A stretch of 57,619 nucleotides of DNA, counting the filler, from Jimgerdemannia flammicorona (Eukaryota): the NCBI GenBank assembly GCA_003990765.1. It is 3 parts of 3 records of this genome, joined end to end, with 100 filler letters (N's around TTAATTAATTAA, not from the genome) between each part and the next. Parts side by side here need not be neighbours in the genome. Positions count along the whole stretch, not along the records: positions 1 to 19,142 come from RBNJ01002014.1; 2 more parts are not named here. One strand, written 5' to 3'. Shown piece by piece: positions 1,200-48,870 of the stretch. Numbering within the stretch: the stretch's first letter is position 1; every line of letters begins with the position of its first letter. Both the position numbers and the translations under genes were made by a program. The notes beneath the pieces are model-generated. The model was not told where the DNA came from and ran no database searches. It worked only from the letters and a program-made list of their open reading frames with translations.

Positions 1200-4100
1200 A
1201 GTACTTTTTAAGTCAGTTTTGATAGATAGTAGTGGGGATTATTATGCCTGATATTTTTTATAGTCAAAAGGTATCTTGCACCAGGTAAGGTCCTTTCTAC
1301 TTAGGCTCTAGTTTTTGTAACCATGAAGCTTCTACTATATTCTAATATATTAAAATTTTATCTTCTATCTTGATAATCTCCAGGGGCTTGTGAATCTTTT
1401 TTGCATTATTCTATTATAGTACCTATACCTTGGTTATATAATCCTCAGCCTTCTTTCTAATTTGGTGTAGTCTCTATATCTCTGTGTCTATATATTTCTA
1501 TACAGTATCTCTTGAGGAGTAAAATGGGTACTTTGTGATCAGATATTCTAAAGAGCAGATAATGCTATTGCAGATAGTGATCCTAGTTTTTATAATTATT
1601 ACAGATCTTAGTAATGATATTCTTGAGAGTCTTATTGATTCTTTCTACTTGTCTATTTCTCTAAGGATAATAGACTGTAGTCTGAATATGCTGGATCTTA
1701 TACTTCTTATAGAGAACCTCAAAGAACTGATTCACAAATTCTGTTCCTCTATCTATAATTACTTGTGCTGGGGTCTTGACTAGCAGATGATTTCTTTGTA
1801 GAAGAAATTAGTAATTAACTGTGTATTAACTTCTTTAAGAGGTCCTGCCTCTATCTACTTTGTAAAAAGGTCTACAATGATGATGATGTATTAGTTGTCA
1901 GTCAAAGTCAAGGGTAGAGGGACAATTATATTTATTGCAATATATACAAAGAGTACTAATTCTATGTATACTAATCCTGGGGTCTGATTTTATTGATCTT
2001 ACTTCTATTTCTGGTATCTGTCACAGGTCTTGACAAATTGTCTGATATCTTTCTCTATTCCTGATCACCACATTGTTCTTCTTACTTTATCATATATATT
2101 TTTTCCTCCTAAATAGCCAAGTTCATATACTGATTTTATTGCTTGCTTCTTCTTGTATTTAGATATGACTAGTAGCTTTTCTTTCTTTAGTATTTCTCTG
2201 TCAGTCTTGAATTGTTTCTATATTCTGTTGATAATCATTTGTATTCATTCTTTTAGATGTTGGGACAACTTTTGCTGTCCCAGATAGGTGATAGTTCTAT
2301 AGTAGAGTTTCTTATTCATGGTTGATTTATTGGTTAGAGGTCCTTTGGGGTATCTGTGAGAGGACATCTACATTGATATTGATTCTTCTAGAGTAGTATA
2401 TGATAGTTATGTCATAAGCTTGCAACTTTATAATCTATCTGACATAGATTCCTTTAGATTGCCTGGTGGTCAGTAGCTAGGTGAGGGCTGGGTGGTCTAT
2501 CTAAATAGTGAAGTATCTCTCTATAAGGTAGTAGTAGAACTTTTCTACAGCCCAGATGACTGTAAGACATTTTAGCTAATAGGATTCATATTTCTTTTTA
2601 ACTCTTCAAGTTTCTTAGCTGAGATATGTAATGATATATTCTACTTTATCTTTCTTCTGAGCCAGAACTACTCCTAGTTCTTGTATATTTATATCTATCT
2701 GCAGAATGAATTCTTGAGTCCAATCAGGTCTTCTGAGGATAAGTACTTGGGTCAGCCTGATCTTGAGTTTATTAAATACTTTTTGTTACCTACTGTCTAT
2801 TGAAACTTAACAATCTTCTTATTGAGTTTATAAATTAGTCTTGTGATGTTGGAGAATCTCTTGATGAATCTTTGATAGTATGAGATAAGTCCCATAAAGG
2901 CTTAAGCTTCAGTGATAGTAGTGGGCCTTGGGTATACTACTACTACTCAAATCTTAAGAGAGTCTGTATGTATTCTATCTTAATTGATAATATGGTTAAG
3001 ATAGAAGATCTCAATTTCTGCAAACTTATACTTCTTGGGCTTGATATAAAGAGCATACTTCTTTAGCTTCTCTATTTTCTACTAGATATACTATAGATAT
3101 TCTTTGGCTATCTTACTATAGATAATAATATGTATTATCTATATAAATCATTATCCATCTTTCCATATTATAGTAAAAGATCTTGTTTATCATTTATTGG
3201 AAACTTACTGATGTATTATATATTCTAAATAGTATTTGCAGGTAGACATAGATTTTATCTGGAGTAATGAAGACTGATTTTTCACTTATTACTTCTGTGA
3301 GACTAATTTAGTAGAATCCTGAATATAAGTCTAGAGTACTGTAGTACTATACTTTATCTTCTAAGGTTATAAGGATATCACTGATAAGGGGTAGTAGTTA
3401 GTGATCCTTCTTTATAGTCAGATTAAACTTCCTGTAATTGGTACAGAGTCTTGAGGTAAATTCTCCTAGTTTGCTTCCTTTTTTTAAAGCTAATATAACT
3501 AGTGAAGCCCAAGGACTGCTGGCTTCTTTGATGATACCAGTTTCTTCCATCTGCTGGATTTCTTCTCTGAGCTATTCACAATAATCTGATGGAATTGGCC
3601 TTGCTTTTTGATAGATTGATTCAGTATCTTCTATATCTATATTATAATAGTAGTACAGAGTTTTTCTCTTAATATCCTTGAAGTCTGTGGCTAGGATATT
3701 CTTGAATTTATAGAGTATCTTCTTGAGTTCCTTCTTGAGTAGGAATTCATCTCTAATGGTATAACTATACTTATTTGTAGTTTTCTTCTTTTTATTATTC
3801 AATTTGGTAATCTTGATACTGGTAAATACTCTTCTTTTTGTGGATTCAAATTCTTTCTTTTCTCTTTTCATTTCCTCCAACTTCTTAACCTCCACAATCC
3901 TTGGCTGAAGAGCTAAGAAGATTAACATTTATACTAGTTAGTTTTTTTTCTTAATTGAGAATAGAATTGTAGAATTGTAGTTCCTAGCAATGAGTAGTAT
4001 TTCTCTAATATAGTCTGAATTGATGACTCCTCCTTTGATAGTAATCTCACTCTTGGCCAGACTGTTTCTTGTCTTGAGAATCCTAATATAGTTCTTTGGA

Positions 4101-6409
4101 ATAGTCATTTCTAGACTCATTGTAAGCAGGGTGGTAGTCTGGGGCTCTAGTATAGTTTCTTTAGCTGTGGTAATATCTATTCCAGCTATATTCTCTAACT
4201 TATATTCTGATAGAACTGCATCAGGGTGGATTTTCCAAATCTTGACCTTGATTTCTTCTTCATCATCATTGTTCTCTAAGAGGACTAGTAGTTCATCATC
4301 CTTTTTCTCCTCCTTCTCTTGTCTTATCTGTTTTTTAAGAGTCTTCTGTCTTCTTTTATAGTAGATTTTCTTGATTCTACTAATATACTGATAGTAATTA
4401 TTAATATGTTTTATATAGTATATCTTAATTCTATGAGGGCAGACTCCTTGTGGTATATATCCTTTAATAATCCTTTTGCATCATTCTTCTTTACTGATCT
4501 ATCTGACTTTTTTCTTCTTTTTCTGTATAGTTACCATATAGGTTTCTTTTTGCTCACTTTCTTCTTCTTTTATCTCAGGTAGTACTTTTTTATTGATATT
4601 GATGGGAATTCACATCTTCTGACCTCAGTGGATAATTGACATCTTTTGGGTATTGAGGTTGATTATTGCTTTTATGAAGCCACTGATTACTGATGAGTAT
4701 GTCATAGTTGATAGTATTGATTATGAATACATTTACTGAGATAGTTGTTCCTCCAAACTTAATGGGGATATCTCAGATCTTTCTCAGAGATATAACTCTT
4801 ATATCATCTACTGTAATGAATACCAATTTGATTACTTCTTCAACCTCCCAACCTAGGTAGTCTGCTGCTTTCTTACTGAGAAGACATCCTTCTGCTCTAG
4901 TATCAATGATGACCTCAAAGATTCTATCTTCAATTTGATAGATTGTATAGACAGATATCTTGTAATTATCCTTGCTCTCTTCTCCAGAGTCTTTTTGAAC
5001 ATTGTTGGTCTCAGTTTTCTTTCAATCTTGCTCTTTGATTATCTCAGCAAGTCCATATCTCATTTGCTATCTGAATGTGGATATTTTTGCCAGCTGGCCA
5101 AAGGTTATATTGATCTTTTATTGACTGAGATTCTTGAAAATATCATACTTAAAAGTCTTGATCTTACAAAGCTTCTTTTCTTTTTCCCCTTTACTGGCTG
5201 GGATATTTTCTTGAATAATATCTTGAATAGTCTGTTCTAGTTTTATATTTTGATCTATTTCTTCACCTTGGCTTTCAATAGTAGTTTCTATCTATTTTTC
5301 TACAGAGTTCTTCATAGGTCTCTCTGGCAGTCTCGTAAGATTGCTTGTGAATATACTTCTTAACAGTCTCAGTAGTATAGACTTTCTATTTTTCTTCATC
5401 TGATTCTCCAATCTCCTCAAAGATGATAGTATTGGCCTATTCCTTATTTTAAGTAGTATTGCTTGGCTGAGCTTTATACTTAATCTCACTTATATATTTA
5501 TATAAGTAATGGTCTTTTTCTCTACAAGTATAGCAGGTACCTCTCTTTTTGTCTGAGGTGGCAGTAAACTTCTGAACTGAACAGCAGTCTCTTTTTCTAA
5601 TTTTCTTTATTACATCTCTAAGATAGGTAGTTATTTTAGCAAACTTCTTAACAAGTTTCTCTATAGAGTCATTATTTCTCTACTACTCAGTAGCTCTTAG
5701 CTAAGGTGTATTTCAATTGATTACTGTAGTAAGAATTATACTAGTTGCCTTGAGCACTTCAATTCTGACTCTAGTGACTCTTTTCATTATATGGTCTTAT
5801 AGATGTCTAACTATCTAATATCACTGGATATAGGTGATCTTCTGTGATAAGTTCAGGACTACTAGTAATGAGCAGATAGCCATTGCTATCTCTTTTTATG
5901 AAAATTACTTCAGCTACCTGGTCTTGAATTGTATCAGTATAATTTGCAAAGATTATCTGATATTAGATTCTAGTATAGAATGTATTTGGATCTACACTTA
6001 TTTCTTAATATGTTATATTGAACTAATTCTTCAGTACTTGCTTGATCTTATCTATATAATAGGTGGTTTAGAGCTAGGCCTTCTGTATTGCTAGTATAGT
6101 ATTGTCATCATTTTCTATATAGGTTATAGCTATAAATGTTGCTCTTGCTAGTTCTTAGAGACTGAAGGACAAGAGAGCTACTTGCTATATTACTGTTAGA
6201 GTCCTTACAGCAATATACTGCTCAAAGTTATTAATAAATATAATAATTGATTCATCTGAGATATATTTATAGAATACTGATAGTCTCATATTCATCTTGT
6301 CTGAATGTCTTGGTTTGATTTGTATGATTGTTTAGATAATAATAATTATTCATTATTTAGCTTGAAAGTGAGGAATTGGTCTTGAATCATCAGCCAATAA
6401 GTACCAAGT
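1200..6409 (-). mobile_element. Degenerate Ty3/Gypsy LTR retrotransposon internal region (gag-PR-dUTPase-RT-RNaseH-IN), family A
   Basis: Colinear with the better-preserved element at 22349-28479. Integrase C-terminal KLEPK*KGPY near 1290; RT remnants ~2900-3600 (IYQKARPIP); dUTPase remnant KTRNSLAKSEITIKGGVINSDY at 3938-4120; protease ~4600-4950; gag ~5700-6300. Many stop codons. Confidence 0.9.
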
Positions 6410-11318: not shown

Positions 11319-14300
11319 TTAAATCGTGATTGTGAGGGTTGTGTTCACTTTCTGCGCTTCGGCTAGTCCGCTGGTTCCGTGAATACCAATACCATTGTCT
11401 ACAGAGGAACCCCAGAATCATGTCAGCTGGAACGATAGTCAGTTGAATGCAAAAATGTGACGCGCTTCGCTCTTCTACATACATTCAAGATTCAGGTTTT
11501 GCAGGCTCATGTTCGTTTTCAGCGCTTCGGCTAGTGCGCTGGCTCCTTCATCGCCAATACCATTTTCTACAGAGGGGCCCATAGAATGTACGAGCGTGTT
11601 TACCAACCGGAATGCTAAACGGATGAATGCAAAAAAAATGAAGAGATTCGTCTCCCTACATACCACCTAGATTCAGGATTTGTATACTCGTGTTCGTTTT
11701 CAGCGCTTCAGCTAGTGCGCTGGCTCCCTGATCGCTACTACCATTATCTACAGAGGAATTCATAGAATGTATACTCGTGGTTATCAGCTGAAACGCCAGA
11801 CGATGAATGCAAAATAGTGACGCGCTTCGTCCAGTTACATACGTCGTAAATTCAGGTTTTGCAGGCTCGTGTTCATTTTTAGCGCTTCGGCTAATACGCT
11901 GGCACCCTGAACGCCAATAACACTGGCTATAGAGGAACCCAGAGAATGGGTGCGCGTGGTTGTCAGCTGGAACGCTAAAAATGTGGCGTGCTTCGTACCC
12001 TTACATACCGTGTAGATTCAGATTTTGCAGGCTCATGTTCGATTTCAGTGCCTCGGCTAGTGAGCTGGCTCCCTGATTGCCAACAACATTGTCTACAGAG
12101 GAACCCATGTACGCGCGTGGTTGTCAGCTGGAACGCTAAATAGATGTAAAAACCACGCACTTCGTACCCTGTAGATTCAGGTTTTGCAAGCTCGTGTTTG
12201 TTTTCAGCGCTTCGGCTAGTGCGGTGGCTCCCCGACTGACAATACGAGTGGCTACAGAGGAACTCATATAATGTACGCGTGTGGTTGTCAGCTGGAACGC
12301 TAAACAGACGAATGTAAATATGTGACGCGCTTAGTTTCCCTACGTACATTTTAGATTCAGGCTTTGCATGCTCGTATTCGTTTTCAGGGCTTCGGCTAGT
12401 GCGTTGGCTCCCTTATCGCCAATACCATTATCTGCAATGGAATCCACGGAATGTTGTCAGCTGGAATGCTAAATAGAAATGTGACGTGCTTCGTTCTTCA
12501 TAATTACATTCTAGATTCAGGTTTTGCAGGTTCGTGTTCGTTTTCAGGGCTTCGGCTAGTGCGCTGGCTCCCTGACCAAAAATACGATTGGCTACAGAAA
12601 ACCCGGCAGAATGTACACGCGTGGTTGTCAGTTGGAATGCTAAACAGATTAATGCAAAAATGTAACCCCTGTATACATTGTAGATTCATGTTTTGTATGC
12701 TCGTGTTCGTTTTTAGCGCTTCGGCTAGTGCGCTTGCTCCCTGGTCGCCAATAGCATTGTCTACAAAGGAGCCCACATAATGTACGTGCGTAGTTGTCAG
12801 CTGAAACGACAAGCAGATGAATGCAAAAATCTGACATATTTCGTCTCCCTATACCACGTAGATTCAAGTTTTGGATGCTCGTCGTCGTTTTCAGTGCTTC
12901 GGCTAGTGTACTAGTTCCATGACCGCTAATATCATTGCCTACAGAAATCCAAAGAAGGGGCGCATTGTTTTCACCTGGAACACTAACAGATGAATGCAAA
13001 AATGTGACGCACTTCGTCCCCCTACATACGTCGTAGATTCAGGTTCTGTATGCTTGCGTTCATTTTCAGTGCCTCGGCTAGTGCGCTGGCTCCCTGATTG
13101 CCAATACCATTGTCTATAGAGGAGCCCATAGAAGGTATGCGCGTGATTGTCAGCTGGAATGCTAAACGGATGAATGCAAAAATATGATGCACCTTGTTCC
13201 CGTACTTACTTTCTAGATTCAGGTTTTGCATGCTCATATTCGTTTTTAGCGCTTCGGCTAGTGCTCTGGCTCCTTGATCGCCACAACCATTGGCTACAGA
13301 AAAGATCATAGAATGTACGCGCAGGGTTGTCAGCTGGAGTGCTAAAAAGATGAATGCAGAAATGTGAAGCGCTTTGTCCTCATACATACCGCGTAGATTC
13401 AGGTCTTGCAGACTCTTGTTCGTTTTCAGCGCTTTGGCTAGTGCACTGACTCCCTGATCGCCAATACGATTGTCTACAGAGGAACCCACAGAATGTACGC
13501 TCGTGGGTTTCAGCCGAAACGATATACAGATGAGTGACGCATTTCGTCCCCCAACATACATTCTAGATTCAGCTTTTGTAAGTTCGTGTTCGTTTTCATT
13601 GCTTCGGCTAGTGCGCTGACTCCCTGATCGCCGATGCCATTGTCTACAGAGAAACCCACAGAATGAACGCGCGTGGTTACCAGCTGGAGTGCCAAAAAGA
13701 TGAATGCAAAAATGTGAAGCGCTTTTCATACATACCGCGTAGATTTAGGTCTTGCAGGCTCGTGTTTGTTTTCAGCGCTTCGGAGAGTGCGCTGGCTTCC
13801 TGATCGCCAATACCATTAACTACACAGGAACCCACAGAATGTACCCGCGTGGTTGTCAGCTAGAACGCTAAATATGTGAATGCAAAATTGTGACGCGTTT
13901 CGTCCTCCTACATTCCTACAGACATTCTAGATTCAGGGTTTGCAGGCTCGTGTTCGTTTTCAGCGCTTCGGCTAGTGTCATGGCTCCTTGACTGTCAATA
14001 ACATTGTCTGCAGAGGAACCCACAGAATGTACGTCAGCTGGAACATTAAACAGATGAATGTAAAAATATGACGCGCTTCGGCTCCTACATACATTGTAGA
14101 TTCAGGCTCGTAAGCACTGTCGGCACGCTGGCTCTATGACCAGCAATCCCATTGTCTACAGAGAAACTCACAGAATTTAGGCGCGTAATTGTCAGCTGGA
14201 ACGCTAAACAGATGAGTGCGAAAATATGACGCACTTCGTTCCCTACTTACAGCGTAGATTCAAATTTTGCAGGCTCGTGTTCGTTTTCAGCGCTTCGGCT

Positions 14301-14684
14301 AGTTTGCTGGCTCCTTGATCACCAATATTATTGTCTATAGAAGAGCCCACAGAACCTCGTCAGCTGGAATGACAAACGTATGAATGCAAAAATGTGACGC
14401 GCTTCGTCCGCCTACATACATTCTAGATTTAGGGTTTGTAGGCTCGTGTTGGTTTTCAGCGCTTCGGCTAGTGCACTGGCACCCTGACTGCCAATACAAT
14501 TGTCTATAAAGGAACCCACATAATGTATGCGCGTGGTTGTCAAATTGAATGCTAAAGAATGAATGCAATACATAATGCTCTTTGTCCTCATCATACATAC
14601 CGTGTAGATTCAAGCTTTGCAGGCTCGTGTTCGTTTTCAGCGCTTTGGCTAATGCGCATACCTCTGTATCTCCAAGATGATTGT
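11319..14684 (-). repeat. Tandem array of 20 exon+intron units, one LRR per exon
   Basis: Exons: 14601-14684, 14420-14503, 14251-14334, 14093-14155 (63 nt), 13924-14007, 13736-13819, 13560-13643, 13390-13473, 13210-13293, 13030-13113, 12855-12938, 12677-12760, 12508-12591, 12348-12431, 12168-12251, 12009-12092, 11843-11926, 11664-11747, 11483-11566, terminal 11319-11398. Internal exons all AG/GT bounded and phase 1. Consensus xNxIGDQGASALAEALKTNTSLQNLNLx. Confidence 0.95.
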
Positions 14685-17071
14685 CTATAGGGACCAATAA
14701 AAGGCTAACAGTTAAAATATGATATATTTTGATTTCATATGTTCTCAAGCTTGGAAGGCTCGCCTTTATTTGCACTACTTCAGCTACAATGCCAACTTCC
14801 TTGTTACTGCTGCTACAAGCTCAACAAATACGAATCTCAAACGTGAGCTGTGGCTACTAGATGTAGATATTATTGTTGTTATTATGTACCTGGAAGATGG
14901 AATTCCCTAAGTTGAAAACACTTCTGAAGAATATTGTTAAACCTACAAATAGGTAAAGGTTGATTTATCAGCAAGTATTATCTGATCAACAAGTGACTGA
15001 TCTGACATTAGACAAAAATATTAAATAAAAAATTGTCATACTCTATATTCTTTGTACGCTTTAGTCTAGATAAGCATTTTAATAGCAATATATCTTAGTA
15101 TTTATTATGTCAAATTCAACAAATAAAATATTAACAAACTTACATTAGTATTTCAATAGTGTTTACAGAATAAATAAGAGCTTCTACATCTTCTGAATGA
15201 GAATTTGTACAAGCTATAAAGCTATAGTTTGACTATTCATTAGTAATTATTAAAAAGTGAGGAAGGATTGAAGTCAAAATTATTACCTGATTTTACGCAG
15301 AGGGACATCACACAGTATGTGCACCACCAAATTTCGAAATGTATGTAAAAATTCATTTGATAAACCCTGGATTCTGTTTTAAAAATAAAAACTGTCATGA
15401 ATATGCAAACCGCTAGATATGAAAGACACATCATAGATCAGAAAATAATGCGAACTTCAATTCCCAAGTCTCGTCGTCAAACTTAACGCTGCGATCTATG
15501 GAACTGCTTTTGATAGCTGCATGGAGACTCCGAATAGCATTTGTCGTCTCCCATTCCAAGGCATGATTCTTGCACACCCATCGCACTGCTATACCACCGT
15601 TTTCCTCACGACGGAGCACGCGCTGCAGATTCCCAGGTCGGCTGGCGTTAGCCATGCCCGAGAGATAAGCTAAATATCGAAATTCGAAAAGAAAATATGA
15701 GTAATTAGCGCGCGCACACTAGAGAAGAAATAATCAATGTATCGCTGCACCTTGAAGTTCTCGTAGATCAGGTCTTTCCGTCGGTCCTGGAGTTCTTCCT
15801 TGCGCCTGAATCGACGGCGGAGCATCAGTCATATATATCTTGATCTGATTAAAAATTTTCTTAGTCTGTGCGCAGAACTCAAGTTCGTGATCCGTAAAGA
15901 TCGACGATTCTGTTTCCTTGTATACGGTTGAAGCAACTTGATCGCCAGCCCGTCGGACCTCTGCTGCCGCTTCCCGGAATGCAGGAACACATTCCAATAG
16001 CCGTCCTCCCAAGCGTACTGCCAGCAAAAGACAGGGCATGACCTATTTCGCACGAGAAATGTTAGATGGTGTGCAAAGAGTGTTCGGAAGTCCAAGCTCA
16101 AACAAATGACATACCATATGTATGTATGGCCCATATTTAGCAACAAACTGAAATAAATTTAAGTAGAGATATGTTAAGCAGAAAAATAAATACTGGCATC
16201 ATGATTGCTGGAGTGCGTGTGATATCGTATAATAAATAACATACCTCGCGTGGTCGGACAATACGGTAGCCGTCATGATATGCCAAATGAAACTGTTTTT
16301 TCGTGCTGCCATTTCCGATGGTTTCGTGCTCGCAGAGGAAGTATAAACGGAAGGTTTTGGTGAAGAAGCTGTCAATTGATGGGGCCCACCAATAACCATC
16401 CTCGGGAAAGATGAAGAAGAGTCGCGGAACTGTATCCTCATGGAGATCAAGAATAACCTTGGGCAGGCTGTCAACCTTGCCGTAAAGTTCGTCGAGGCTG
16501 CTGAATATGTCTCTCGTGTCTCCCGTGTCATTTATGTCTGCAGTATCACCCTTGTCGTTTATTATCTTCTGTAAGATCCATATACATATGGAGAAAAAAG
16601 AACAAAACGTTGAAGTTGCGTAAACGTCATAAGGATAATACAATAACACAAAATATCGATCTTTACTAACCGACGCCAGATCTGAAAATGGAGCTGAGAT
16701 GATGGAATATTTCGTTTCAGTTGGCAAGAGCATCGAAGATTTTAAGAAACGACGGTAGGGGTCATTCACTGGACGACAAAATTCCATGACAGTTGACTGG
16801 AATAATATATGTGATAATAGCTACCTTTCAATCGGGTAATCTCGTTTATAATTTTCTTCACAGGACCACCTCGTAAATTATACGGAGGTTCCAATAGGTC
16901 ATTTTCAGTGAGTAGAATGAGAGTGCCTCCGTCTGTTTCCTGATCGCGTAGGATCGCTACATGGTCGGGTTTCAATTCGAGAGCAGGGTGTTGAAAGTGC
17001 TCGAAAACTCTGTGTTCATTCCAGATCTTGATTTCGTCAAGCGAAGGAGTTGTAAGTTCTTTGGAGGACAT
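11319..17071 (-). CDS. Multi-exon SAM domain + uncharacterised middle domain + 20x RI-like LRR protein (receptor-like; no NTPase seen)
   Basis: Manual GT-AG splicing: 16825-17071 (SAM), 16671-16681 (micro-exon, tentative), 16245-16568, 16115-16147, 15751-16042, exon from 15669, tentative small exons ~14700-15375, then the LRR exons to TAA at 11319-11321. Spliced motifs PRLFFIFP, RLYFLCEH, HDGY..RPRE-FVAKYG, DLRELQAYL..GNLQRV..VRWVC..H. The link between ~14920 and 14684 is uncertain. Confidence 0.8.
16825..17071 (-). CDS. SAM-domain first exon, proximal copy
   Basis: ATG at 17071. W..(V)..F...L.L...H..IL.DQE.DG..L.LLT..DL.....L..GP..KI pattern typical of SAM domains. Phase-1 GT donor after 16825. 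Confidence 0.75.
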
Positions 17072-17415
17072 GGTATATCGATGAACTTTATGAAGAATTG
17101 CCGGCAGATGAGTATTCGATCCCAGAAGTCAAACAATTAAAACACAAGTTATAATACGATCCCAGATGACAGAGTTGTATGTTGCGCCAAGACAATAATT
17201 ATCAAAACAAAGAATTCGCACCTTCCGTAGATGATTTTTTCATAGATTCATGTTGACTTCCCGTTCCTAGTCAAAACCAAAAATGAAATTTACTTGTTTC
17301 AGTTGGAAGTTATGAAGAAATGACCATGACTGATGGTATGGACATTCACCGGACGGTAAACTCTTGAAGATCCTCCACAATAGTTGATTGGAATAATATA
17401 TGTGATGATAGTTAC

Positions 17416-17662
17416 CATTCAATCGGGCAATCTCGTTCATAATTTTCTTCACAGGCCCACCTCGTAAGTTATACGGAGGTCTCAATAGGTCATTTTCGGT
17501 GAGTAGAATAAGAGTACCTCCGTCTGTTTCCTGATCACGCAGGATCGCTGCGTGATCGGGTTTCAATCCGAGAGCAGGGTGTCGAAAGTGCTCGAAAACT
17601 CTGTGTTCATCCCAGGTCTTTATTTCGTCAAGCGAAGGAGTTGGAAGTTCTTTGGAGGACAT
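17416..17662 (-). CDS. SAM-domain first exon, distal duplicate
   Basis: Same 247-nt length, ATG and phase-1 donor as 16825-17071. Translation differs at only about ten residues. Confidence 0.7.
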
Positions 17663-18829
17663 GATAACGGAGGTAGAGAGGTGTACAACGATGAATTGCC
17701 ACCAGGCGAGTATCGTAATCAAATGAACTCTTTCAGATGTCAGGTTTGTTCTCGTGACACCTTCAGGATTGACGGACCCGAGCCAAATGCTATGAATATA
17801 TAGTATCTATACTATAATTGAGCAATCTACAAGTCATGAAGTCATGGGGTAGTGGCATAAACCTACGACCACCACCTCCATGTAGCATGTAGTACAAACT
17901 CTGTAATGAGCGATTGCCAACATTGTTTCCCAGGCCACCTTTTAAGGCACGTGGGATTTACAACGGTTGTCGATGTAATCACATGACGTTCTAGCGTGGA
18001 TTATATTAGTAAAAGGCTGTATAGATAGGGTTGTTTGTTAAGATAATAAAGTCAGATTTCAGCTTATTGGACTAGGAAGGGGAGAATTCGGTGAATTGAC
18101 AAGAACGCGCGATTAAGGGATCTGTTCAATAGGTTCATTTTCAGGCACTTTGGACAGGGCAAACGATTGTCCTTTATTGACTGCGAATTTCTGGTGATAT
18201 TTCACACGCCTCCCGCATGAATGCGAACAAGCCCCTTGTCGTTCTCTCCGTCGCCCAACCTCTAAAATCTTACCACCTAGGGCAATCAACCAATTCATCG
18301 ATGGTGCCAAACAATCTTCACAACCGCAGAGTCCCTCCATTCCCCCAACCCTCTGCGACCAGCTCCTTACCATCGAGGCTAAGGGTAATGTGTGACAAGC
18401 CCCTCACACACAATGTTCATTAAGCCCAAGCGTCTGCCGAAGCTGCGATGAATCGGTCAACAAACAGCGTGCTAGCTCCAAAGGGTACGTTTATTTATTC
18501 ATTCATTCTTATGGCAGTATAGAGTGTTCGGGATGCTCGACAGCAGTTTTATTTTGTCCAATGTGATGTTTTATTTCACGATTCCAGCGATTTGCTAAAG
18601 ATAGAGGCAGAGGCCGTACAAGCCATGGAATTGGGTATGTTGATAAGTTGGGTTTCGTGGGATGAAGGTGTGGTCGGGAATTTGAATGTGTCGAGAATGG
18701 GAAACATCATAATTTTCAGGAGGATCGGATGTACGAGCCGTTCTAATATTCCCTTACCCACTAAATCATTGCTTCATTGTTTTTCGATACACTCATCTCT
18801 GCTGATGCTGCTCAGGTTCACAAGTGGTA

Positions 18830-18867
<38 letters not shown>

Positions 18868-19142: not shown

Positions 19143-19242
19143 NNNNNNNNNNNNNNNNNNNNNNNNNNNNNNNNNNNNNNNNNNNNTTAATTAATTAANN
19201 NNNNNNNNNNNNNNNNNNNNNNNNNNNNNNNNNNNNNNNNNN
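19143..19242. other. Assembly gap linker (N44-TTAATTAATTAA-N44)
   Basis: Artificial spacer with stop codons in all six frames. Confidence 0.97.
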
Positions 19243-20793: not shown

Positions 20794-22348
20794 TGTCATA
20801 TAGTGGTCACTGAGTCCTTCAAATATGTCAGATTCTCTTCAAGATATATCTCTTAGACTAACTCAAGTTTGTTATAAGCAAGTTCTTATTGGAGTGCCTT
20901 CCTAAGGTCTTGTAGTCCTCAAACTTCTTATCTTTAAACTGTCTTGTTATCTCTTAGATTGCTTGTAAGAAAGTGTGTGTATTGTACTGAGAAGAACTGA
21001 CTTTATTGCAGAGGAAATAAGAAGAGTATTTATACAAAATATAATTCAATAGTTGCTAAGATATAAAGCTAAATATAAATTCCAATAACTAAAATAAAAT
21101 GCCAGGACAGGAAAAACTGCTAAGTTCCAGAGTCAGCACTAATAGTTGTATAGATTCAGAATGCTGGTATAATTTGGTATTATATCAAAATACTGGTACT
21201 GGCATTATTTAGTATTACATCAAAATGTCAGTACTGGCATTATTCAGTATTATATCAAAATGCTGGTACTGACATTATTTAGTATAACTAAGAGACTTAG
21301 AGCAGAATGTTCAAGACCATAGGAGTTTCATCATTAGAGATCAGGATGTCTTTAAAGGAGATGAGGTCTATGAACATCTCATCTGTCTCATCATTGTCAT
21401 CACATATGTCATGCAAGATGATATCATCACTGATGATATCATCACATTTGGCAGTAGGGAAATCAGGGACTCTCCAATCTATGAGGTTCTCTTCTACAAA
21501 ATAAGGGACAAATGTGGGGTCTTGGGGAGGTCTAACCTGAATGCTTGGGTCTTGGAATACTGAGATCAATCCTTGTAGGAATTGGTCTGGGTTGTCCTGA
21601 AGGATGGGATGTCAGAAGTCTTCTACTTCATCACTATTGAGAGTGATAGTGGACTGGGCTTCTGTAGCCACCCTGGCTTTTAGTGCATTGATATGGTGGA
21701 ATGACAGGTCTCTGAAATCTGAGACTCTAACATACTCTAAGTTGGGGATCAACCATAGTACATGCCTGAAGATCTGATGAATCTTCTTAGCTATTCTCAT
21801 TTCATATATATCCATGGGAGTGGTATCTTGTAGCTCTTAAGTGCTGGCCTGTGGGAACTCCTAGTAGAGGAGGTTTTCTATTTCATATTCCTGCCATATT
21901 TGGAGGCATTCAGTAGCAATGGTGATTCTGGTTTCCATTTCATAATGATAGAGGATATAGTGATAAGGGTCACCAGTATCTAGGTTGACACTCGGAGTCC
22001 TTCTTGAGTGGGTCCTCATGGCTCTTCTGATGTCTTAGAACATCCTTTCTTCAATTGAGGTGCCTTGGTGGTTCCTTGACCTTGAGGTTTGGCAAGCAGC
22101 AGACATTTTATTTGTAGTGAGTCTTTGAGCTATTTTGGGATTGATGGGTCTTGTTGGTTGTTGTTACTGTAGTTTCTTGATACTTCTTTTATATTCCTCA
22201 AGATGCTTGTACTGTGGTCACAATGACTCACAGTTGGTCATCATTGCTCATCTCATATGCTGTATAATCTTCTTATGCTCTGATCTGGTGACTTGTAAGG
22301 AAAGACTATCTCCTATGCTGATGTCATCATTCTGGGGTCACTGTTACA
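20794..22348 (-). repeat. 3' LTR, family C (1555 bp)
   Basis: Direct repeat of 28480-30101. TGT...ACA termini. About four 35-bp tandem units at ~21160-21290. Confidence 0.92.
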
Positions 22349-23750: not shown

Positions 23751-25849
23751 CATTGACAAATTCTGTGCTGCAGTCTGTTGTGATTTGCTTTGGTATCTTG
23801 TAGCAGCAAATGATTTCTTGGTGTAGGAAGTCAGCTATAGAGAGGGCATTGACTTCTTGTAATGCTCTTGCTTCTATCTATTTGGTAAAGAGGTCTATAA
23901 TAACTATAATATAGCAGTTTCCTGATAGTATTACTAGTAGTGACCCAATGATATCTATTGTGATATAGTGGAAGGGGATAGGCTCAATTCTTGATGACCC
24001 AGGTGCCTGGTCTTGCTCTTGTTTCTGTTTTTGGTACTTGTCACACTCTTTGACAATTGATACAGGTCTTCTTTCATCTTAGGCCACTACATAGTTCTTC
24101 TTGCTTTATTATATGTGTTGGTTCCTCCTAGGTGTCCTTGCTCATATACTTCCTTCATTACTTAATACTTCTTATATTTGGATATTACTAGCTTTCCTTC
24201 TTTTCTGAGTATAGTGTTGTCTAGTTCAAACTGTTTCCAAGTCTAGTTGATGATGGTGATTGTCTAGAGTTTGAGGTGGTTGGATATCTTCCACTACCCA
24301 AGATAGCTGATTAATCCATAGTATAGCTCCTTATTCATGTTGAATAGTCTTGATGGGAGTATTTCAGAGTATCCTTAAGAGTGTATTGGTATTGGTATTG
24401 GTTCTTCCTAAGTGGTGCTTGACAGTACAGTTATACTCTTATAGCCTGTAGATCCATCTGGTATATATTTCTTTGGAGTTCAGAGTGTGAAATAGCCAGA
24501 AAAGAGCAAAATGATCTGTTTGAATAGTGAAGTGTTTCCTAGCTAGATAGTAGTAGAACTTGTCTACTGCCCAAACTACTGCTAAGCATTTGAGCTTACA
24601 TGACTTATAGTTCTGTTTTGCTCCATGGGTACCTTGGCTTATATAGAATATGACATATTTATGTCCATCTTTCTTCTGAGCTAGGACTGCTCTAAGTCCT
24701 ATAGCACTTGCATCTATCTACAGGATGAATTCTAGGTTCCAATCTGGTCTTTTGAGGATAGGTGCTTGGGTCAATCTGGTCTTGAGTTCATTGAAGATTT
24801 CTTGGCACTCCTTGGTCCATTCAAATTTGGTTTCCTTCTTCAGTAGCTTGTAGATAGGTGCTGCAATGTTGGAGTATCCTTTGATGAATCTTCTGTAGTA
24901 GCTGGCCAGTCCAAGGAAGGCATGGACTTCTGTGGTCATTCTGGGTCTCAGGTAGCTGCAACAGCCTCAATCTTCATAAGGTCTGTGTGGATTCTGGTCT
25001 GGTTGATGAGATATCCTAGATAGGCGATTTTTTGAGCTACAAACTTACATTTCTTGGGCTTGATGTAAAGGCCATACTCCTTGAGCTTCTTGAGGGCTAG
25101 CTGTATATAATTGATATGTTCCTGTGCAGTGTTGCTGAAGATGATCACATTATCAACATAGACAAAGAGCCATTTTCCAATCTCATTGCTGAAGACTCTG
25201 TTCATCATTCACTGGAAACTTGCTGGGGCATTGCACATTCCAAATGGCATTTGCAGATAGATATAGGTGGCATCAGATATGATGAAGGCTGATTTCTCAC
25301 TGACATCTTGAGTGAGACCAATCTGATGGAAGCCTGAGAACAGATCCAAGGTGGTGTAGTATTTGGCTTTGCTTCTAAGAGTGGTAAGGATTTCTTGAAT
25401 ATTTGGCAAGGGCTGCCTATCCTTCTTGGTGATGGCATTGAGTTTCCTGTAGTTAATGCAGAGTCTTGGCACAAACTCTCTAGACTTGCTTCCTTTCTTT
25501 GAGGTGAGGACAATGGGTGAAGCCCAGAGACTGATAGCTTGCTTGATGATTCCAGCTTCTTCCATTTCCTTGAGTTCTGCTTGCAGCCATTCTCTGTAGG
25601 CAGGTGGTATGGGTCTGGCTTTCTGGTAGATGGGCTTGGTATCACCAGTGTCAACTTTGTGGTAGTACTTAGATTCTTGATTGTGGATATCCCTGAAGTC
25701 TGTAATAAGTACTTCTTCATTCTGGTACAAGATCTTGAGAAGTTGTTCCTTCAAGGGAAAGTTTTCTCCAATGATATATGTGTGCTTGTTCTGGTCCTTG
25801 TCTTTCTTGTGCTCAAGTTCAGTAATCTTAGTAGTAGCATAGGCTCCTC

Positions 25850-26260
25850 TTCCAGTAGATCCAAAGCCTTGTTCTCCTCTCTTAGTCTTGATGAGTTTGA
25901 TGGCTTCTATGATCTTGGGCTTCTTGATTTCCTGGATCAGCATCTGGCCAATCCTGTCATGCTTCTTGATTTTAAATGGGGTAGTGGGGTTGTGATTTCT
26001 AACTATAAGGAAGATCTCACCAGTATAATCAGAGTCAATTACTCCTCCTTCAACTGAGATTTCACTTTTGGCCAGACTGCTCCTAGTTTTGATAATTCCA
26101 GCATAATCCTCTGGTAGCTTGACTCCAATTCCAGTGCCAAGTAGAGTGGTGGTCTGTGGTTTGAGGGTAGTATCTTGAATGCTGGTAAGGTCTATTTCTA
26201 TAACTCCTTCAGTCTTGTATTCTGGGATCTTGGCTTTGGGGTGAAACTTCTTGATCTTGA
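25850..26260 (-). CDS. dut: Trimeric-type dUTPase domain within pol
   Basis: Motifs IDL, KTRSSLA, GVIDSDYTGEI, DRIGQM, RGEQGFGSTG inside ORF 25209-26441, in frame with RT. Confidence 0.93.
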
Positions 26261-27183
26261 GGGTGATGTCTTGTTCTTGTTTCTCCTCATCATCACTATC
26301 AGCCTGAAGCTCAGGGGGCTGGTCATCTTCTTCAGCTTTCCTTTTTACTTTGGTGGCTTCTTGCTTATGTTTCTGTTGGTGGATTTTCTTGACTTCACTG
26401 ATACAGGACCAGCAGTCATTCAGGTGTTCAGAGCAGTACATTCTAGTACCATGGGGGCATCTTTCTTGAGGGGCATAGCCATCGATGATCTTGTTATACT
26501 ATTGCTCATCTATGAGCTTAGGTGTCTTGTTCTTGTTCTTGTTCTTATTCACCGAGTGTATGAAGACTTCTGTGTCCTCTTTATCTCCTTCCTCTATATC
26601 TGGTAGGACTCCCTTGTGGACATTGATAGAGACTCATCCTTTCTTTCTCTGTAGTTGATCTGCATCTTCTGGGCATTGAGGTCAATGATGGCCTTGGCCT
26701 TATGAAGCTATTAGTTACTAATGAGAATGTTATAGTTGGTGGTGCTTGTAACAATCACATCTACTGGGATGGTAGCTCCTCCTATCTTTATGGGACTTCT
26801 TGGATTTTACCAAGGGGGGTAGCTCATATACCATCTGCTGTAACATAGACCATCTTGGTGGACTCTTCAATATCCCAGCCTAGGCAGTCAATTGTCTTCT
26901 TACTCATAAGGTATCCTCCAGCACCAGTATCAATGATGGTATCAAAGATACAGTCTTTGATCTGACATGGGGTATAGGCTGATATCTTGTACTGGTCTTT
27001 GGATTCTTCATCTGAGTTTTCAGATTCTTCCTGTATATTGTGAGCTTCTACAATCTTGTACTCTTGATTCTTGGCAGTAGTTGCAAGTCCTACTCTCAAC
27101 TGCTATCTGAAGGTAGGGACTTCAGCTAGCTGTCCAAAAGTAGTATTGACCTTCTATTCCTTAAGGTCCTTGTAGATATTATA

Positions 27184-28479: not shown

Positions 28480-30101
28480 TATCATATAGTGGTTGCTGAG
28501 TTCTTTAAATATGCCAGATTTTCTTCAAGATGTCTCTTAGACTAACTCAAGTTTGTTATAAGCAAGTTCTTATTAGAGTGCCTTCCCAAGGTCTTATAGT
28601 TCTCAAACTTCTTATCTTTAAACTGTCTTGTTATCTCTTAGATTGCTTATAAAGAAGTGTGTGTATTGCACTGAGAAGAACTGACTTTATTTTAAAGGAA
28701 ATAAGAGAAGTATTTATACAAAATATAATTCAATAGTTGCTAAGATATAAAGCTAAATATAAATTCCAATAACTAAAATAAAATGCCAGGACAGAAAAAA
28801 CTGCTAAGTTCCAGGGTTGGTACTGATGGTTGTACAGGTTCAGGATGCTGGTATAATTCAGTGTTACATCAAAATACCAGTACTGGCATTATTCAGTATT
28901 ACATCAAAATGCCGGTGCTGACATTATTCAGTATTACATCAAAATGCTGGTACTGGTATTATTCAGTATTATATCAAAATGCTAGTGCTGGTATTATTCA
29001 GTGTTATATCAAAATGCCAGTACTGGTATTATTCAGTATAATTAAGAGACTTAGAGCAGAATGTTTAAGACTATAGGGCTTTATCATCAGAGGTCAGGAT
29101 ATCTTCAAAGGAGATGAGGTCTACGAATGTCTCATCTGTCTCATCATTGTCATCATATATATCATGCGGGATGATGTCATCACTGATGACATCATCACAT
29201 TCAGTGGCAAGGAAATCAGGGGCTCTCCAATCTATGAGATTCTCTTCCATAAAATAAGGAACAAATGTGGGGTCTTGAGGGGGTCTAATCTGGATGCTTG
29301 GGCCTTAGAATACTGAAATCAATCTTTGTAGGAATTGGTCTGGGTTGTCCTGAAGGATGAGATGTCAGAAGTCTTCTACTTCATCACTATTGAGGGTGAT
29401 AGTAGACTGGGCTTCTGTAGCCACCCTGGCTTCTAGTATATTGATATAGCAGGATGACAGATCTCTGAAATCTGAGACTCTAACATACTCCAAGTTGGGA
29501 ATAGACCATGGTATATACCTGAAGATCTGATAGATCTTCTTAGCTGTCCTCATTTTATGTATATTCATGGGAGTGGTATCTTGTAGCTCTTGAGTGTTGG
29601 TCTGTGGGAACTCCTGGCAGAGGAGGTTTCCTATTTTGTATTCCTGCCACATTTTGAGGCATTCAGTAGCAATGGTGATCCTGGTTTCCATTTTACAGTG
29701 GTAGAGGATATAGTGATAAGGGTCACTAGTACCTAGATTGATACTAGGAGTCCTTCTTGAGTGGGTCCTCATGGCTTTTCTGATGTCTTGGAATATCCTT
29801 TCTTCAACTGAGGTACCTTGGTAGTTTCTTGACCTTGAGGTTTGGTGGGCAGCAGGCATTTCATTTATAGTGAGTCTTTGAGCTATTTTGAGATTAGTGG
29901 GTCTTGTTGGTTACTGTTACTGCAGTTCCTTAATCCTTCTTTTATATTCCTCAAGATGCTTATACTGTGGTCACAATAACTCATAGTTAGTCATCATTAC
30001 TCATCTCATATGCTGTATAATCTTCTTGTGCTCTGATCTGGTGGCTTGCAAGGAAAGACTATCTCCTATGCTGATGTCATCATTCTGAGGTCACTGTTAT
30101 A
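28480..30101 (-). repeat. 5' LTR, family C (1622 bp)
   Basis: Direct repeat of 20794-22348. Termini decayed to TAT...ATA. About six 35-bp tandem units at ~28845-29040. Confidence 0.92.
29365..29859 (-). CDS. LTR-encoded accessory ORF of unknown function
   Basis: 164-aa ORF, sense to the element. Homologous disrupted copy in the other LTR (~21612-22107). Confidence 0.55.
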   Translation of the reverse strand: MPAAHQTSRSRNYQGTSVEERIFQDIRKAMRTHSRRTPSINLGTSDPYHYILYHCKMETRITIATECLKMWQEYKIGNLLCQEFPQTNTQELQDTTPMNIHKMRTAKKIYQIFRYIPWSIPNLEYVRVSDFRDLSSCYINILEARVATEAQSTITLNSDEVEDF

Positions 30102-35500: not shown

Positions 35501-35581
<81 letters not shown>

Positions 35582-35929: not shown

Positions 35930-38125
35930 CTATGTTGAATCTGCTAGAGAGCAGTTAGGTGGTGCTGATGTATAATGGTCACCATGGTCTGGCATTTTCC
36001 TTGAGAAGAGGAGTTCCTCAGAGGGACCCTCTGTCCCCTATTCTCTATACTCTTTTGTTAGAGCCATTGATGGATAGGATTCACCAGAAGGTGGCAGGGC
36101 TCTCTATATATGGTATAGTGTAGAAGGTGGGGGTCTTTGCTGATGACATAGTGGTTGGACTTAGGTCTGTGGCAGATGTTGAGGCACTTAAGGAGACAGT
36201 GGAATTGTATGAGGCTCACTCTGGGGTGAAGCTCAACTGGCATAAGTATGAGACAATGGTGCTAGAGAATGGGCTAGTGGGTGGAGATGTCATTGGAACA
36301 ATTGTTCCTACTGATGAGGTGGTACAGTATCTGGGCATCTTCCTTTCTGTATATAGTTCTGTCTTGCCATGGGTAGTGCTCCCAAACAAGTTGAATCAAT
36401 TCGAATTGAATCGAATTGAGGGTTAAACAAGTCGAATCGAATTGGGAATTTTTCAATTCGAATCAATTTGAATCGAATCAAAAGTTGAATCGAATTGAGA
36501 GTCTGATTCGAACTCTAATTTTCAAAATGCAATAACTCAGCATAAACTCATCCAAATCTAACGTACTTTAGCTTGTTAGAATCGCATTAATATGGTGAAT
36601 CTAACAAGCTAAAATATGTTAAATTTGGATGAGTTTTCGTCGAGTTATTACATTTTGAAAATTAAGGTTCGAATCAAACTTTGAATCAAATTGGACCTTT
36701 GATTCGATTTGAATCAAATCAAATTGGACCCTTGATTCAATTCATTGGGAGCACTAGCCATGGGTGTGGTGAGAGAGCAGGGTGACTATTTGGGAGAAGG
36801 TCCTTCAAGGTTGGAGAGGCTGCCATATCTCTCTGGCAGGGTGGGTGTCAATTCTGAATATATACTGGTTCTCTAAGCTGTAGTATGTGGCCTATCACCT
36901 AGACTTCCCAGCTTGGGTGGTGAAGAGGCTGATGAAGGTGGCTAGAGATTGGATTTGGGCAGGGAGGAGGTCCCAGATCAGTTGGGATACTCTTGCAACA
37001 CCAGTGGTCAGGGGAGGTCTTGGCCTTGTGGATTTCCCTAAGAGGTTGTACTGCTTGTGAGCCTGGTGGTTGAAGAGAGCTGCTAAACTGCAGGGAGGGG
37101 GTTGGGTGCCTCTGCTGCAGAAGGTGTGAGAGATGAGAACCTCCCCTTGAGGGTCCTCAGGAGATCTGCTCTCTTTGGTAGGGCTGAATGGAAATTGGCG
37201 GCTGTGATTTAAGGGCTTTTGGTGGGGAGTGGTAGATGGAGCACACCAAATTAGCCTGCACTGGCAAGGTAATGAGGAGGAGGTGATGTGGGGGCCTGAT
37301 ATGTGGCAATGAGATAGACTGCTCCTGGGGGGTGCTCCACTTACTATGTTTGATATTGGGAATAGAGTGGAGTATCAGCAGGGGCTTGGCCAGGATCTTT
37401 GGCCAAGTGGCTGGCAGGCGGCAGAGATCAGTGAGGAGTGAGACTGAGCAGATATCTGGTCATGGAGTGCTGAGGTGCAGAGGTGGCTTCCTCCAAAGTT
37501 CTGGGTAGTATGGTGTTGAATACTATGGAGGAATGTCATATTGAATTTCCACACTGGGTATCTGGTGGACAGTGGCCATTTCAATTGTGAGGAGTGTTAT
37601 AATGTAGGGCAAGCTGGGGGTCTTATGCAGATGCTGGAACATTGGTTGGGAGAGTGTGAGGTTCTGGGGGACTTTTGGATAGAAATAGAGAATAGACTAG
37701 GTGTGGAGCAAAGGCCAGCAGGTGAGGGGGGCCACTGGGAGGACTTGAGATCTCAGCTAGTAGATGGGGTGAGTGATAGTTGGCTCACTATAGGGTGGGT
37801 GTTAGCAGTGTGGGTGGGACTGGCAGGACATTGGCTCTTTATATTTGAGAAGGGGTGGCAGATGGGGCTGCAGGAGAAGGGATTAAGGTGGGAGGAGCTG
37901 TTGGGGGATTTACTGGCTAGATGGTGGGTGGGTTGGGGTCCTCAGAGGGGGTGATATGGTAAGGATCTGTGAACAGAGTGGTGGGAGGGTAGAGATTGTG
38001 TTAGACAAAGCAGTCTTTCATCGGGAAGGGGTAGGGAGAGGGGGACCCCCTATGGGGATCAGATAGGGGGTGAGATCACTGTATTTATATAGGATAGATA
38101 GGTATAATAAAGAAAGGAAGTCCAC
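35930..38125 (+). mobile_element. 5'-truncated L1/Tx1-like LINE (RT to 3' end), decayed
   Basis: GVPQRDPLSPILY, GVFADDIVV, YLGI. Homologous to 49950-51720. Interrupted by a MITE. Confidence 0.88.
36374..36756. mobile_element. hAT-type MITE
   Basis: 12-bp TIR TAGTGCTCCCAA/TTGGGAGCACTA and a perfect 8-bp TSD GCCATGGG (36366-36373, 36757-36764). Confidence 0.92.
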
Positions 38126-38383: not shown

Positions 38384-38483
38384 NNNNNNNNNNNNNNNNN
38401 NNNNNNNNNNNNNNNNNNNNNNNNNNNTTAATTAATTAANNNNNNNNNNNNNNNNNNNNNNNNNNNNNNNNNNNNNNNNNNNN
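38384..38483. other. Assembly gap linker (N44-TTAATTAATTAA-N44)
   Basis: Same artificial spacer as 19143-19242. Confidence 0.97.
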
Positions 38484-47944: not shown

Positions 47945-48268
47945 TCCTTATACTCCTTGATGACCTCTACAATCAATCCTCTGGCCATCTTCTTCAACAC
48001 TACAAGTATATCTACTACTATCAACTATATCACTCAGGGGTTCCAGCATAAGCACTGGGCCATAGGGACCACTCCCCCCCCCCACTACTACTCTCTTCTC
48101 TATTGCTTTCAGCAGCATATTCTTCTTCTTGAAATCTATCTCCACCCCTTCCAGTCTCTTCAAAAATTTTACCAAGGCTGCTCCCTTCACCTCCTGGGCC
48201 AGAAACCCCAGAATCATTCTCACTATATTACTAAGCCCCAGAAACACAATGTGATGATGAATTCTGAC

Positions 48269-48303
<35 letters not shown>

Positions 48304-48870
48304 AATTCTGACCTTGATTTCTTGAGTAATAGTATCACCACTAGGTCTGTTATATCATATGCCAGATCTCTGGACCTCATGCCCACTCCCTGTCCAGATC
48401 TATTATCAATTATCACATCTGGATTTTTTTCCCTATTGGTAGTCTCTTTGCTATCAGTAGTCCTGCTCCCCCCAGCCACTACTCCCCCAGCTCCACTGCT
48501 CTTACTGCTATAGACCACTCTACTAGACCCTGCAGCCCTCACTATCTCCTTGCTCTTCTTCAGCCAACCCTCCAATCCTGTCAATAGATGTCTTCTCTTC
48601 ACCTTGTCAGCAAAGCTCATCCTCTCAGTTCTCTGTCTCCCAGTACTGCCTCCTCTTCTTCTATGTCCTCCAGTCAGTAAGTCTTATATACTTCCCTCTA
48701 AGCCATAACTCCTCTCTACATACTGCCAGTCAAACACACTAGAGCTGCATTACTTAGCACATATCTCAGAATGCTTATTGGTCATCATATTTCTAATACT
48801 TATTCTCCAAAACTAATATTGTAAGTATTTCCAAAAGTTTGTATAATTCAAATATTACTAGAGAAAGGTG
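47945..48870 (-). mobile_element. Decayed LINE 5' end/ORF1 fragment
   Basis: VKFLKRLEGVE motif shared with 54487-55245. Decayed 5' motif at ~48840-48868. Confidence 0.7.
48272..48300 (+). other. Poly(A)-only retroposed insertion with a 15-bp TSD
   Basis: ATGAATTCTGACCTT at 48257-48271 and 48301-48315 flanks A29. Confidence 0.8.

Follow-up and report, generated by a model that had tools for sequence, protein, structure and literature searches.

Does splicing contribute to residue diversity when an intron cuts through the most variable codon of a repeat? This question was raised by a tandem array of leucine-rich repeat (LRR) exons of the fungus Jimgerdemannia flammicorona (assembly GCA_003990765.1). 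The array lies on the minus strand of a stretch of 57,619 nucleotides (nt), here called the window, in which three parts of the genome are joined end to end; positions count along the window, which had the character of eukaryotic DNA with retroelements and short introns. A first-pass annotation of the sequence had proposed that the two residues before the conserved Asn of each repeat are the most variable, that they straddle each splice junction, and that new exon pairings would create residues absent from the genomic order, as a form of junctional diversity. The analysis favoured another explanation, with a probability of about 0.75: the split codon was inherited by duplication of a module, the variety of residues arose by ordinary substitution and was likely selected, and splicing was not its source.

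Twenty LRR exons of the ribonuclease-inhibitor (RI) type were found on the minus strand between 14684 and 11319. Eighteen of the 20 were exactly 84 nt long, exon 4 had 63 nt, and the last exon had 80 nt including the TAA stop codon. The exons and one degenerate repeat upstream of them are given below in the order of the gene; the joints come from contigs of two public runs (X1 and X2), whose RNA status is a guess, although their spliced joints suggest transcripts.

14745..14801, minus strand: degenerate upstream LRR, a weak match to the exon profile (nhmmer E 0.0022)
14601..14684, minus strand: LRR exon 1, an 84-nt unit; its upstream border probably does not serve as an acceptor
14420..14503, minus strand: LRR exon 2, 84 nt, phase 1-1; contig joint 14334|14420
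14251..14334, minus strand: LRR exon 3, 84 nt; contig joint
14093..14155, minus strand: LRR exon 4, 63 nt; part of the helix is lost through an in-frame deletion of 21 nt
13924..14007, minus strand: LRR exon 5, 84 nt; donor GTCTGT
13736..13819, minus strand: LRR exon 6, 84 nt; its first bases TT give Phe at the junction
13560..13643, minus strand: LRR exon 7, 84 nt
13390..13473, minus strand: LRR exon 8, 84 nt
13210..13293, minus strand: LRR exon 9, 84 nt
13030..13113, minus strand: LRR exon 10, 84 nt
12855..12938, minus strand: LRR exon 11, 84 nt; weak donor GTATAG
12677..12760, minus strand: LRR exon 12, 84 nt
12508..12591, minus strand: LRR exon 13, 84 nt
12348..12431, minus strand: LRR exon 14, 84 nt; contig joint 12251|12348
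12168..12251, minus strand: LRR exon 15, 84 nt; contig joints
12009..12092, minus strand: LRR exon 16, 84 nt; contig joints
11843..11926, minus strand: LRR exon 17, 84 nt; contig joints
11664..11747, minus strand: LRR exon 18, 84 nt; contig joints
11483..11566, minus strand: LRR exon 19, 84 nt; it starts with AA, so a partner exon ending in T gives TAA
11319..11398, minus strand: last (20th) LRR exon, 80 nt including TAA; contig 11226-11398 matches without differences

All 19 introns of the array were GT..AG introns in phase 1 with a length of 75-104 nt, and most of them carried a CTGAC-like branch motif; weak donors were present among them (GTATAG, GTATAC, GTAATT, and GTCTGT). At each of the 19 introns the split codon consisted of one base from the end of an exon and two bases from the start of the next exon, as the first-pass annotation had stated, and its 19 junction di-residues (HD, EY, RY, QY, EF, RD, EY, RA, EN, RR, RD, QS, EY, KS, QD, HA, RH, GE, and EY) were reproduced exactly. 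The LRR exons were all symmetric (phase 1-1), and the 18 full exons and the 63-nt exon keep the frame. Conceptual translation of the spliced array gave a single open frame of 28-residue repeats, with one LRR per frame-preserving exon and the intron always in the same repeat codon. Tandem Repeats Finder detected periods of 180 and 350 nt across 11977-14657.

Two irregularities were observed at the upstream end of the array. The 60 nt between the degenerate LRR and exon 1 (14744-14685) resembled a former module intron without a GT donor; this segment was in frame, free of stops, and inside the unbroken contig cover of 14675-14905, and it may be an exonised intron. In exon 4 (14093-14155) the loss of 21 nt took most of the conserved helix motif, and the solenoid rung encoded by this exon is probably malformed.

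Variability was expressed as Shannon entropy over the 18 full repeats, with the split codon numbered as position 28 and the residue after Asn as position 2. Position 28 had the highest entropy of all repeat positions (2.86 bits, 9 residue types), followed by position 2 (2.55 bits) and position 27 (2.22 bits); positions 23 and 5 had 1.99 and 1.84 bits, respectively. The residues L11, A14, K16, Q22, N25, and L26 were invariant in 18 of 18 repeats, and Asn was found at position 1 in 16 of them. The description of the junction di-residue as the most variable part of the repeat was therefore correct for the split codon; however, the pair held ranks 1 and 3, and rank 2 belonged to position 2, which had not been mentioned. 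Position 2 is part of the same variable cluster as positions 27 and 28 and lies beyond the junction.

The repeats were assigned to the RI (RNI-like) type by their period of 28 residues and a Leu/Asn skeleton of the form LxxLxLxxNxIgdxGA..LA.AL in 18 repeats. Pfam family LRR_6 (PF13516) matched 5 of 18 single exons at E up to 0.01, the tabulated member scoring 17.9 bits against a cut-off of 23.4; the LRR_6 model spans the exon border, and the single exons were searched unspliced. A relative from Linnemannia elongata (P0001) reached an LRR_6 score of 307 bits. Among solved structures, the best relative of the repeat profile by sequence was NOD2 (5irm, E 4.6e-12). The fold was modelled on a relative from Mortierella alpina (P0012) with AlphaFold and an 8-row alignment, giving a mean predicted local distance difference test (pLDDT) value of 73.9, which rose to about 90 across the regular portion of the LRRs. 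In this model, 9 of 9 repeats had a strand at positions 23-25, a loop at 26-28 and 1-3, and a helix from 4/5 to 17, which corresponds to the strand, loop, and helix turns of the ribonuclease inhibitor horseshoe. Foldseek matched the model to ribonuclease inhibitor (1dfj) with a template modelling (TM) score of 0.71, and NLRP proteins and NOD2 also matched.

On the basis of the P0012 model, positions 27, 28, and 2 would line up as a stripe in the loop that follows the beta-strand, at the rim of the concave face. The loops that follow the strands make most of the contacts between ribonuclease inhibitor and its ligands. The variable x residues of LxxLxLxxN are described as solvent-exposed and located in the usual binding region in the available text of PMC3138743. 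Positions 27 and 28 are thus probably exposed in the protein of this array as well, and the earlier statement that the two residues before Asn are exposed probably applies here, given their modelled location directly after the strand.

Arrays with and without introns were then compared. Metagenome contigs scanned with the repeat profile yielded 66 loci, including 11 intron-free arrays with 6-11 contiguous repeats at 84-nt spacing in one frame. In all 11 intron-free arrays, position 28 ranked 1-4 of 28 by entropy and was first in four of them, while position 27 ranked 1-7. Positions 27 and 28 also belonged to the top six by variability in each of the 7 annotated relatives. Five further metagenome loci (L042, L025, L034, L018, and L055) had 84-nt exons with the same phase-1 split codon. 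In these split arrays the AG..GT register was shared by 31 of 33 exons, the junction residues were varied, and the introns between adjacent exons were 58-78 nt long with cag acceptors and gtaag/gtgag donors. Since these splice-site flavours differ from those of the present array, the split arrays came from another eukaryote. These results showed that the design with an intron in that codon also occurs outside this genome and that position 28 is hypervariable with or without the intron. Because hypervariability was equal in intron-free arrays, the diversity can be explained without the junction.

The rate of change at the junction was compared with introns and synonymous sites. The six junction bases had a nucleotide diversity of 0.55, and the 96 alignable intron columns had 0.25; in the scaffold, the value was 0.22 at third codon positions and 0.16 at first and second positions. 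The scaffold third positions ran at the intron rate, in support of the introns as a neutral yardstick. With all sites in the tree, parsimony gave 25 steps for the six junction bases and a mean of 13.9 per intron window of six columns (P = 0.008, junction bases against six random intron sites); the P value against random intron sites was 0.0012 when the comparison was restricted to the six bases of codons 27, 28, and 2 at which every change is nonsynonymous. When the test sites were left out of the tree, the junction had 5.83 steps per site, and 12 left-out intron blocks had a mean of 2.5 and a maximum of 3.33; 0 of 12 reached the junction value. The synonymous third base of codon 2 changed only once in the left-out parsimony, and the region is therefore no general mutational hot spot. 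By the Nei-Gojobori method, the scaffold had a nonsynonymous divergence (dN) of 0.156 and a synonymous divergence (dS) of 0.39 (ratio 0.40), and it is under purifying selection. Codons 2, 27, and 28 had a dN of 0.95, exceeding the dS of the whole array by a factor of 2.4. The nonsynonymous excess over intron and synonymous divergence, whose absence would have spoken against the first-pass annotation, was thus present at about 2.3-2.4-fold, with two weaker tests borderline. An approximately two-fold excess at the junction codons is likely genuine. Diversifying selection could account for it but is not proven by 18 short paralogous units.

Introns of the array had a mean identity of 0.747, against 0.785 among exons. 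The introns are themselves duplicates, which makes an exon together with its intron the unit of duplication. Module identity was flat at about 0.77 at every lag (0.759 at lag 1 and 0.771 at lag 2), and the module trees were star-like and not in array order; the exon-end types GAAT and CGCG/CGAC were dispersed across the module tree. A two-module (A/B) periodicity, prompted by the 350-nt period and the alternation of Glu-Tyr and Arg-Asp at the junctions, was considered and rejected, as identity was flat with distance and the trees contained no two clades.

Splicing of the array was investigated with the X1 and X2 contigs. Contigs were placed at 90% likeness in a multi-copy family, so many of them are paralogous, and 15 joints were listed of 90. 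Joints at 11566|11664, 11747|11843, 11926|12009, 12092|12168, 12251|12348, and 14334|14420 (CT..AC on the plus strand) showed that at least 6 of the 19 array introns were removed at exactly the predicted bases. Two introns upstream of the array were also removed in the contigs (15221|15287 and 16147|16245). Among the listed joints, those with GT..AG on the gene strand and no replaced letters all linked neighbouring exons (6 introns). The check on junction-spanning reads suggested by the first-pass annotation, run here with contigs, thus gave precise joining and nothing like imprecise joining. Exon skipping at the array locus was demonstrated by none of the 15 joints listed, a set of multi-copy contigs that could miss rare isoforms. 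Three odd joints were considered as skipping or re-ordering, namely 11559>11848 (skipping 288, with 12 replaced letters), 11926>11488 (back 439), and 13987>12509 (back 1479). This was rejected on account of replaced letters, a backward course, or the lack of a label, and they are probably paralogues or repeat mis-assembly.

Two further observations concern the contigs. A contig at 12732-12884, identical to the window, retained intron 11 (donor GTATAG); retention would shift the frame, and the contig may represent pre-mRNA, DNA carry-over, or intron retention. At 13818-14252, three X2 joints of equal depth (1043) spanned introns 3, 4, and 5 including the 63-nt exon; their differences from the window fall precisely on the bases of the junctions, where Ser would replace Tyr, Phe would replace Tyr, and Ser would replace Phe. 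These three joints may belong to one contig of an allele or a very close paralogue.

Several points weigh against the favoured explanation, and most of them concern the strength of the junction excess. Empirical-Bayes site rates from IQ-TREE were 1.56 at the junction and 1.05 in introns, an excess of only about 1.5-fold in estimates that are strongly shrunken with 18 short sequences, and one intron window of six sites reached 1.62. The haplotype diversity of the last four exon bases (0.915) was matched by 4 of 85 intron windows of four columns, and 2 of 91 contiguous intron windows reached the 25 steps of the junction. Local dS at codons 27/28 was about 1.07, giving a local ratio of about 0.9-1.0 from few synonymous sites and multi-step paths. 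At codon 27, several of the changes from Arg to His or Gln are transitions at CpG sites, which may inflate the rate. The sample consists of 18 short paralogous repeats, in which gene conversion can distort trees, and the excess over introns is moderate and method-dependent. In addition, some intron-free contigs are near-duplicates (L003/L004; L010/L013/L024), so the independent cases are fewer than 11, and the exposure of the variable residues was read from the model of a relative and from the literature instead of the accessibility of the array's own protein.

The local ratio, the shrunken site rates, and the equally diverse intron windows would also fit relaxed constraint only, with positions 27, 28, and 2 as surface sites that drift neutrally. 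Neutral sites should stay at the intron rate; however, the excess was 2.3-fold in the leave-out analysis, was reached by none of the 12 blocks, and had P values of 0.001-0.008, and the same positions headed the ranking in unrelated arrays, so neutral drift on its own is unlikely. A decaying, functionless pseudogene array would account for the 21 nt lost from exon 4, the intron without a GT donor upstream of exon 1, and the retention of intron 11 in one contig. It is very improbable in view of the frame that is open through 20 exons, the GT..AG borders at 19 of 19 introns, and the scaffold dN/dS ratio of 0.40; spliced contigs also cover the array, though partly from paralogues. Re-pairing at the DNA level is a further alternative, in which unequal crossing-over within homologous introns would recombine half-codons and supply part of the residue variety. 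It agrees with the approximately 75% identity of the introns, the clear expansion of the array by module duplication, the module tree that does not track array order, and the scattered exon-end types, and comparable exon shuffling is described in the available text for brown algae (PMC3341825) and Tetrahymena (PMC6564038). However, with 19 junctions its outcome is indistinguishable from point mutation, the number of junction residues equals the number under random pairing, positions 27 and 2, which each lie within one exon, are nearly as variable, and intron-free arrays are equally variable. A contribution from such crossing-over is therefore considered improbable.

Junctional diversity at the RNA level, closest to the earlier proposal, would arise if skipping joined non-adjacent symmetric LRR exons and produced receptor variants with residues absent from the genomic order. 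The 18 full exons and the 63-nt exon all preserve the frame, some donors are weak as noted above, and skipping of LRR exons is documented, in the text available, for human NLRP3 (PMC6642158) and brown-algal ROCO genes (PMC11378527). Out of 171 possible forward skips, 64 would give a residue unlike both parental junctions, and 18 would yield a split-codon residue not found with the exons in genomic order (V, G, C, T, K, P, and Q). Against this, each skip would alter one residue and lose at least 28, and 8 of the 171 skips would make TAA by joining an exon ending in T to exon 19. Random re-pairing of exon ends gave a mean of 8.9 distinct residues, compared with 9 observed, and position 28 was equally hypervariable in 11 of 11 intron-free arrays. 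By analogy with NLRP3 lacking exon 5 (PMC6642158), the functional effect of any skip would come mainly from the loss of a repeat. With skipping seen in none of the listed joints, this explanation is very unlikely. Regulated skipping of LRR exons, giving SAM-LRR isoforms that vary in repeat number and junction residues as proposed for brown-algal ROCO genes, would amount to a receptor repertoire made by splicing and is about equally unlikely. The idea that new exon pairings generate junctional diversity was thus not upheld: 11 of 11 intron-free arrays were equally variable, splicing was exact, and the arithmetic gain was small.

The explanation by module duplication and ordinary substitution can be outlined as follows. 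The ancestral module would have been an 84-nt exon with an intron of about 90 nt, and the array would have grown by tandem duplication of this module. The ancestral phase-1 intron would have interrupted the codon of the second x in LxLxxN, and every copy would therefore have inherited a splice-split codon. Residues 28, 27, and 2 would have diverged after duplication by ordinary nucleotide substitution, and their diversity was most likely kept by selection on binding specificity. The evidence points to the split codon as a by-product of the place of the ancestral intron, and splicing is probably not the source of residue diversity. The array would be the C-terminal binding domain of a gene that encodes a SAM-like domain, a conserved domain without known family, and 20 RI-type LRRs, with a putative role in binding or as a receptor.

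The upstream part of the gene, for which the gene model is incomplete, contained the following features.

16245..16487, and on to 16088-16150 after a 97-nt intron, minus strand: conserved middle domain of no known family; contig joint 16147|16245; also present in LRR proteins of Mortierellomycotina
16826..16969, minus strand: SAM-like copy nearer the LRRs, a weak match (19.3 bits against a cut-off of 23)
17420..17572, minus strand: second SAM-like copy, further upstream (20.6 bits against a cut-off of 23)

The middle domain (16088-16487) had the motifs PRLF...FRLYFLCE...H-GY...KYGPY and also occurs in Linnemannia and Lobosporangium LRR proteins, with 41% identity over 86 residues (E 1e-15). 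No Pfam family matched the middle domain. An Atlas search gave one unnamed cluster with a score of 0.75, which serves as a lead only. The minus-strand segments 16766-17128 and 17267-17806 were near-identical tandem SAM-like segments, each after a Met-Ser-Ser-Lys-Glu-Leu start; they are either a duplicated first exon or a truncated second copy of the gene. No NACHT domain was matched by Pfam in six upstream frames of 15431-17806, which did not cover every short exon, and only weak SAM_1 matches were obtained. Homologues were searched with a 240-residue read-through frame as query; the best relatives were proteins of Mortierellomycotina, and NLRC3-like proteins of corals and fish came next. These relatives and the intron style point to a fungal gene, probably of Mucoromycota. 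P0001, annotated as a hypothetical protein, resembles this gene in having the same middle domain followed by a long RI-type LRR array, in which positions 27 and 28 are the most variable as in the present array; unlike this gene, it has no SAM match in Pfam.

Outside this gene, a retroelement polyprotein frame was observed at 25209-26498, in which a dUTPase domain precedes the reverse transcriptase; another fragment with a dUTPase lay at 3938-4480. Tandem repeats of 35 nt at 21164-21285 and 28848-29039 flank the retroelement of 25209-26498 and may lie within its terminal repeats. A Pfam search of 11 other long frames of the window gave nothing but a dUTPase fragment. Runs of N (two pairs of 44 bases) were present at the part joins 19143-19242 and 38384-38483, and long homopolymers were present at 18832-18864 (C33) and 35501-35577 (T77). 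The G-versus-C skew was +0.38 at 36001-38000 and -0.40 to -0.48 at 48001-56000; these skewed stretches may be one repeat family in both orientations, and their long frames had no Pfam match.

Descriptions of candidate immune receptors in fungi usually involve WD40, TPR, ankyrin, or HEAT repeats, and to our knowledge LRR immune receptors are barely known in this fungal lineage. RI-type LRR arrays with receptor-like hypervariable residues at putative contact sites in an early-diverging fungus would widen the view of fungal receptors. Literature searches, mostly at the level of titles and abstract openings, found no report of one-LRR-per-exon arrays in fungi. Junction diversity made by splicing would, if true, be a cheap multiplication of receptor surfaces; the evidence points the other way.

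Comparison with known systems showed that the design itself is already published: symmetric exons that each encode one LRR, contact residues that are hypervariable, and a 'junction amino acid' have been described across animal NOD/NLRC genes, brown algae, and Tetrahymena. The available text of Hoss et al. 2019 (PMC6642158) describes NOD/NLRC genes in which each frame-preserving exon encodes one 28-residue RI-type LRR and is alternatively spliced, and in which, as here, the exon border is always at the same place at the beta-strand. NOD/NLRC genes have a NACHT domain upstream, whereas the present gene has a SAM-like domain and an unassigned domain in a fungal host, and the introns of this array are themselves tandem copies. 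Xiong et al. 2019 (PMC6564038), in the text available, describe Tetrahymena arrays of 90-bp LRR exons in which a 'junction' amino acid is spelled by two exons as an interlocked translational unit. Tandem LRR exons of equal length with a single intron phase are common to both systems; however, the Tetrahymena exons are in phase 2 (two bases plus one) and 90 bp long, compared with phase 1 and 84 bp here, and that text does not report the junction residue as the most variable, which it is in the present array.

The brown-algal LRR-ROCO genes are described by Zambounis et al. 2012 (PMC3341825) and Teng et al. 2024 (PMC11378527) as having 72-bp phase-2 'type I LRR exons'. In the portions available, both papers treat positive selection on concave-face residues and propose exon shuffling and alternative splicing as contributors to receptor diversity. 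These genes share with the present array the coding of one LRR per exon, and the proposal made for them is the same idea as that of the first-pass annotation. They differ in their plant-type LRRs of 72 bp in phase 2 and their ROC-COR domains, compared with 84 bp, phase 1, and RI-type LRRs here; as far as the available text goes, their long introns hold spare LRR exons, whereas the introns of this array are 75-104 nt long and hold none. V(D)J recombination and the variable lymphocyte receptors (VLR) of lampreys resemble the earlier proposal only in the idea of a contact residue made where cassettes meet, since they use somatic DNA rearrangement with imprecise or templated joins, in contrast to the exact GT..AG splices and fixed germline order found here. 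Among these systems, the present locus is a clean, well-measured example and introduces no new principle.

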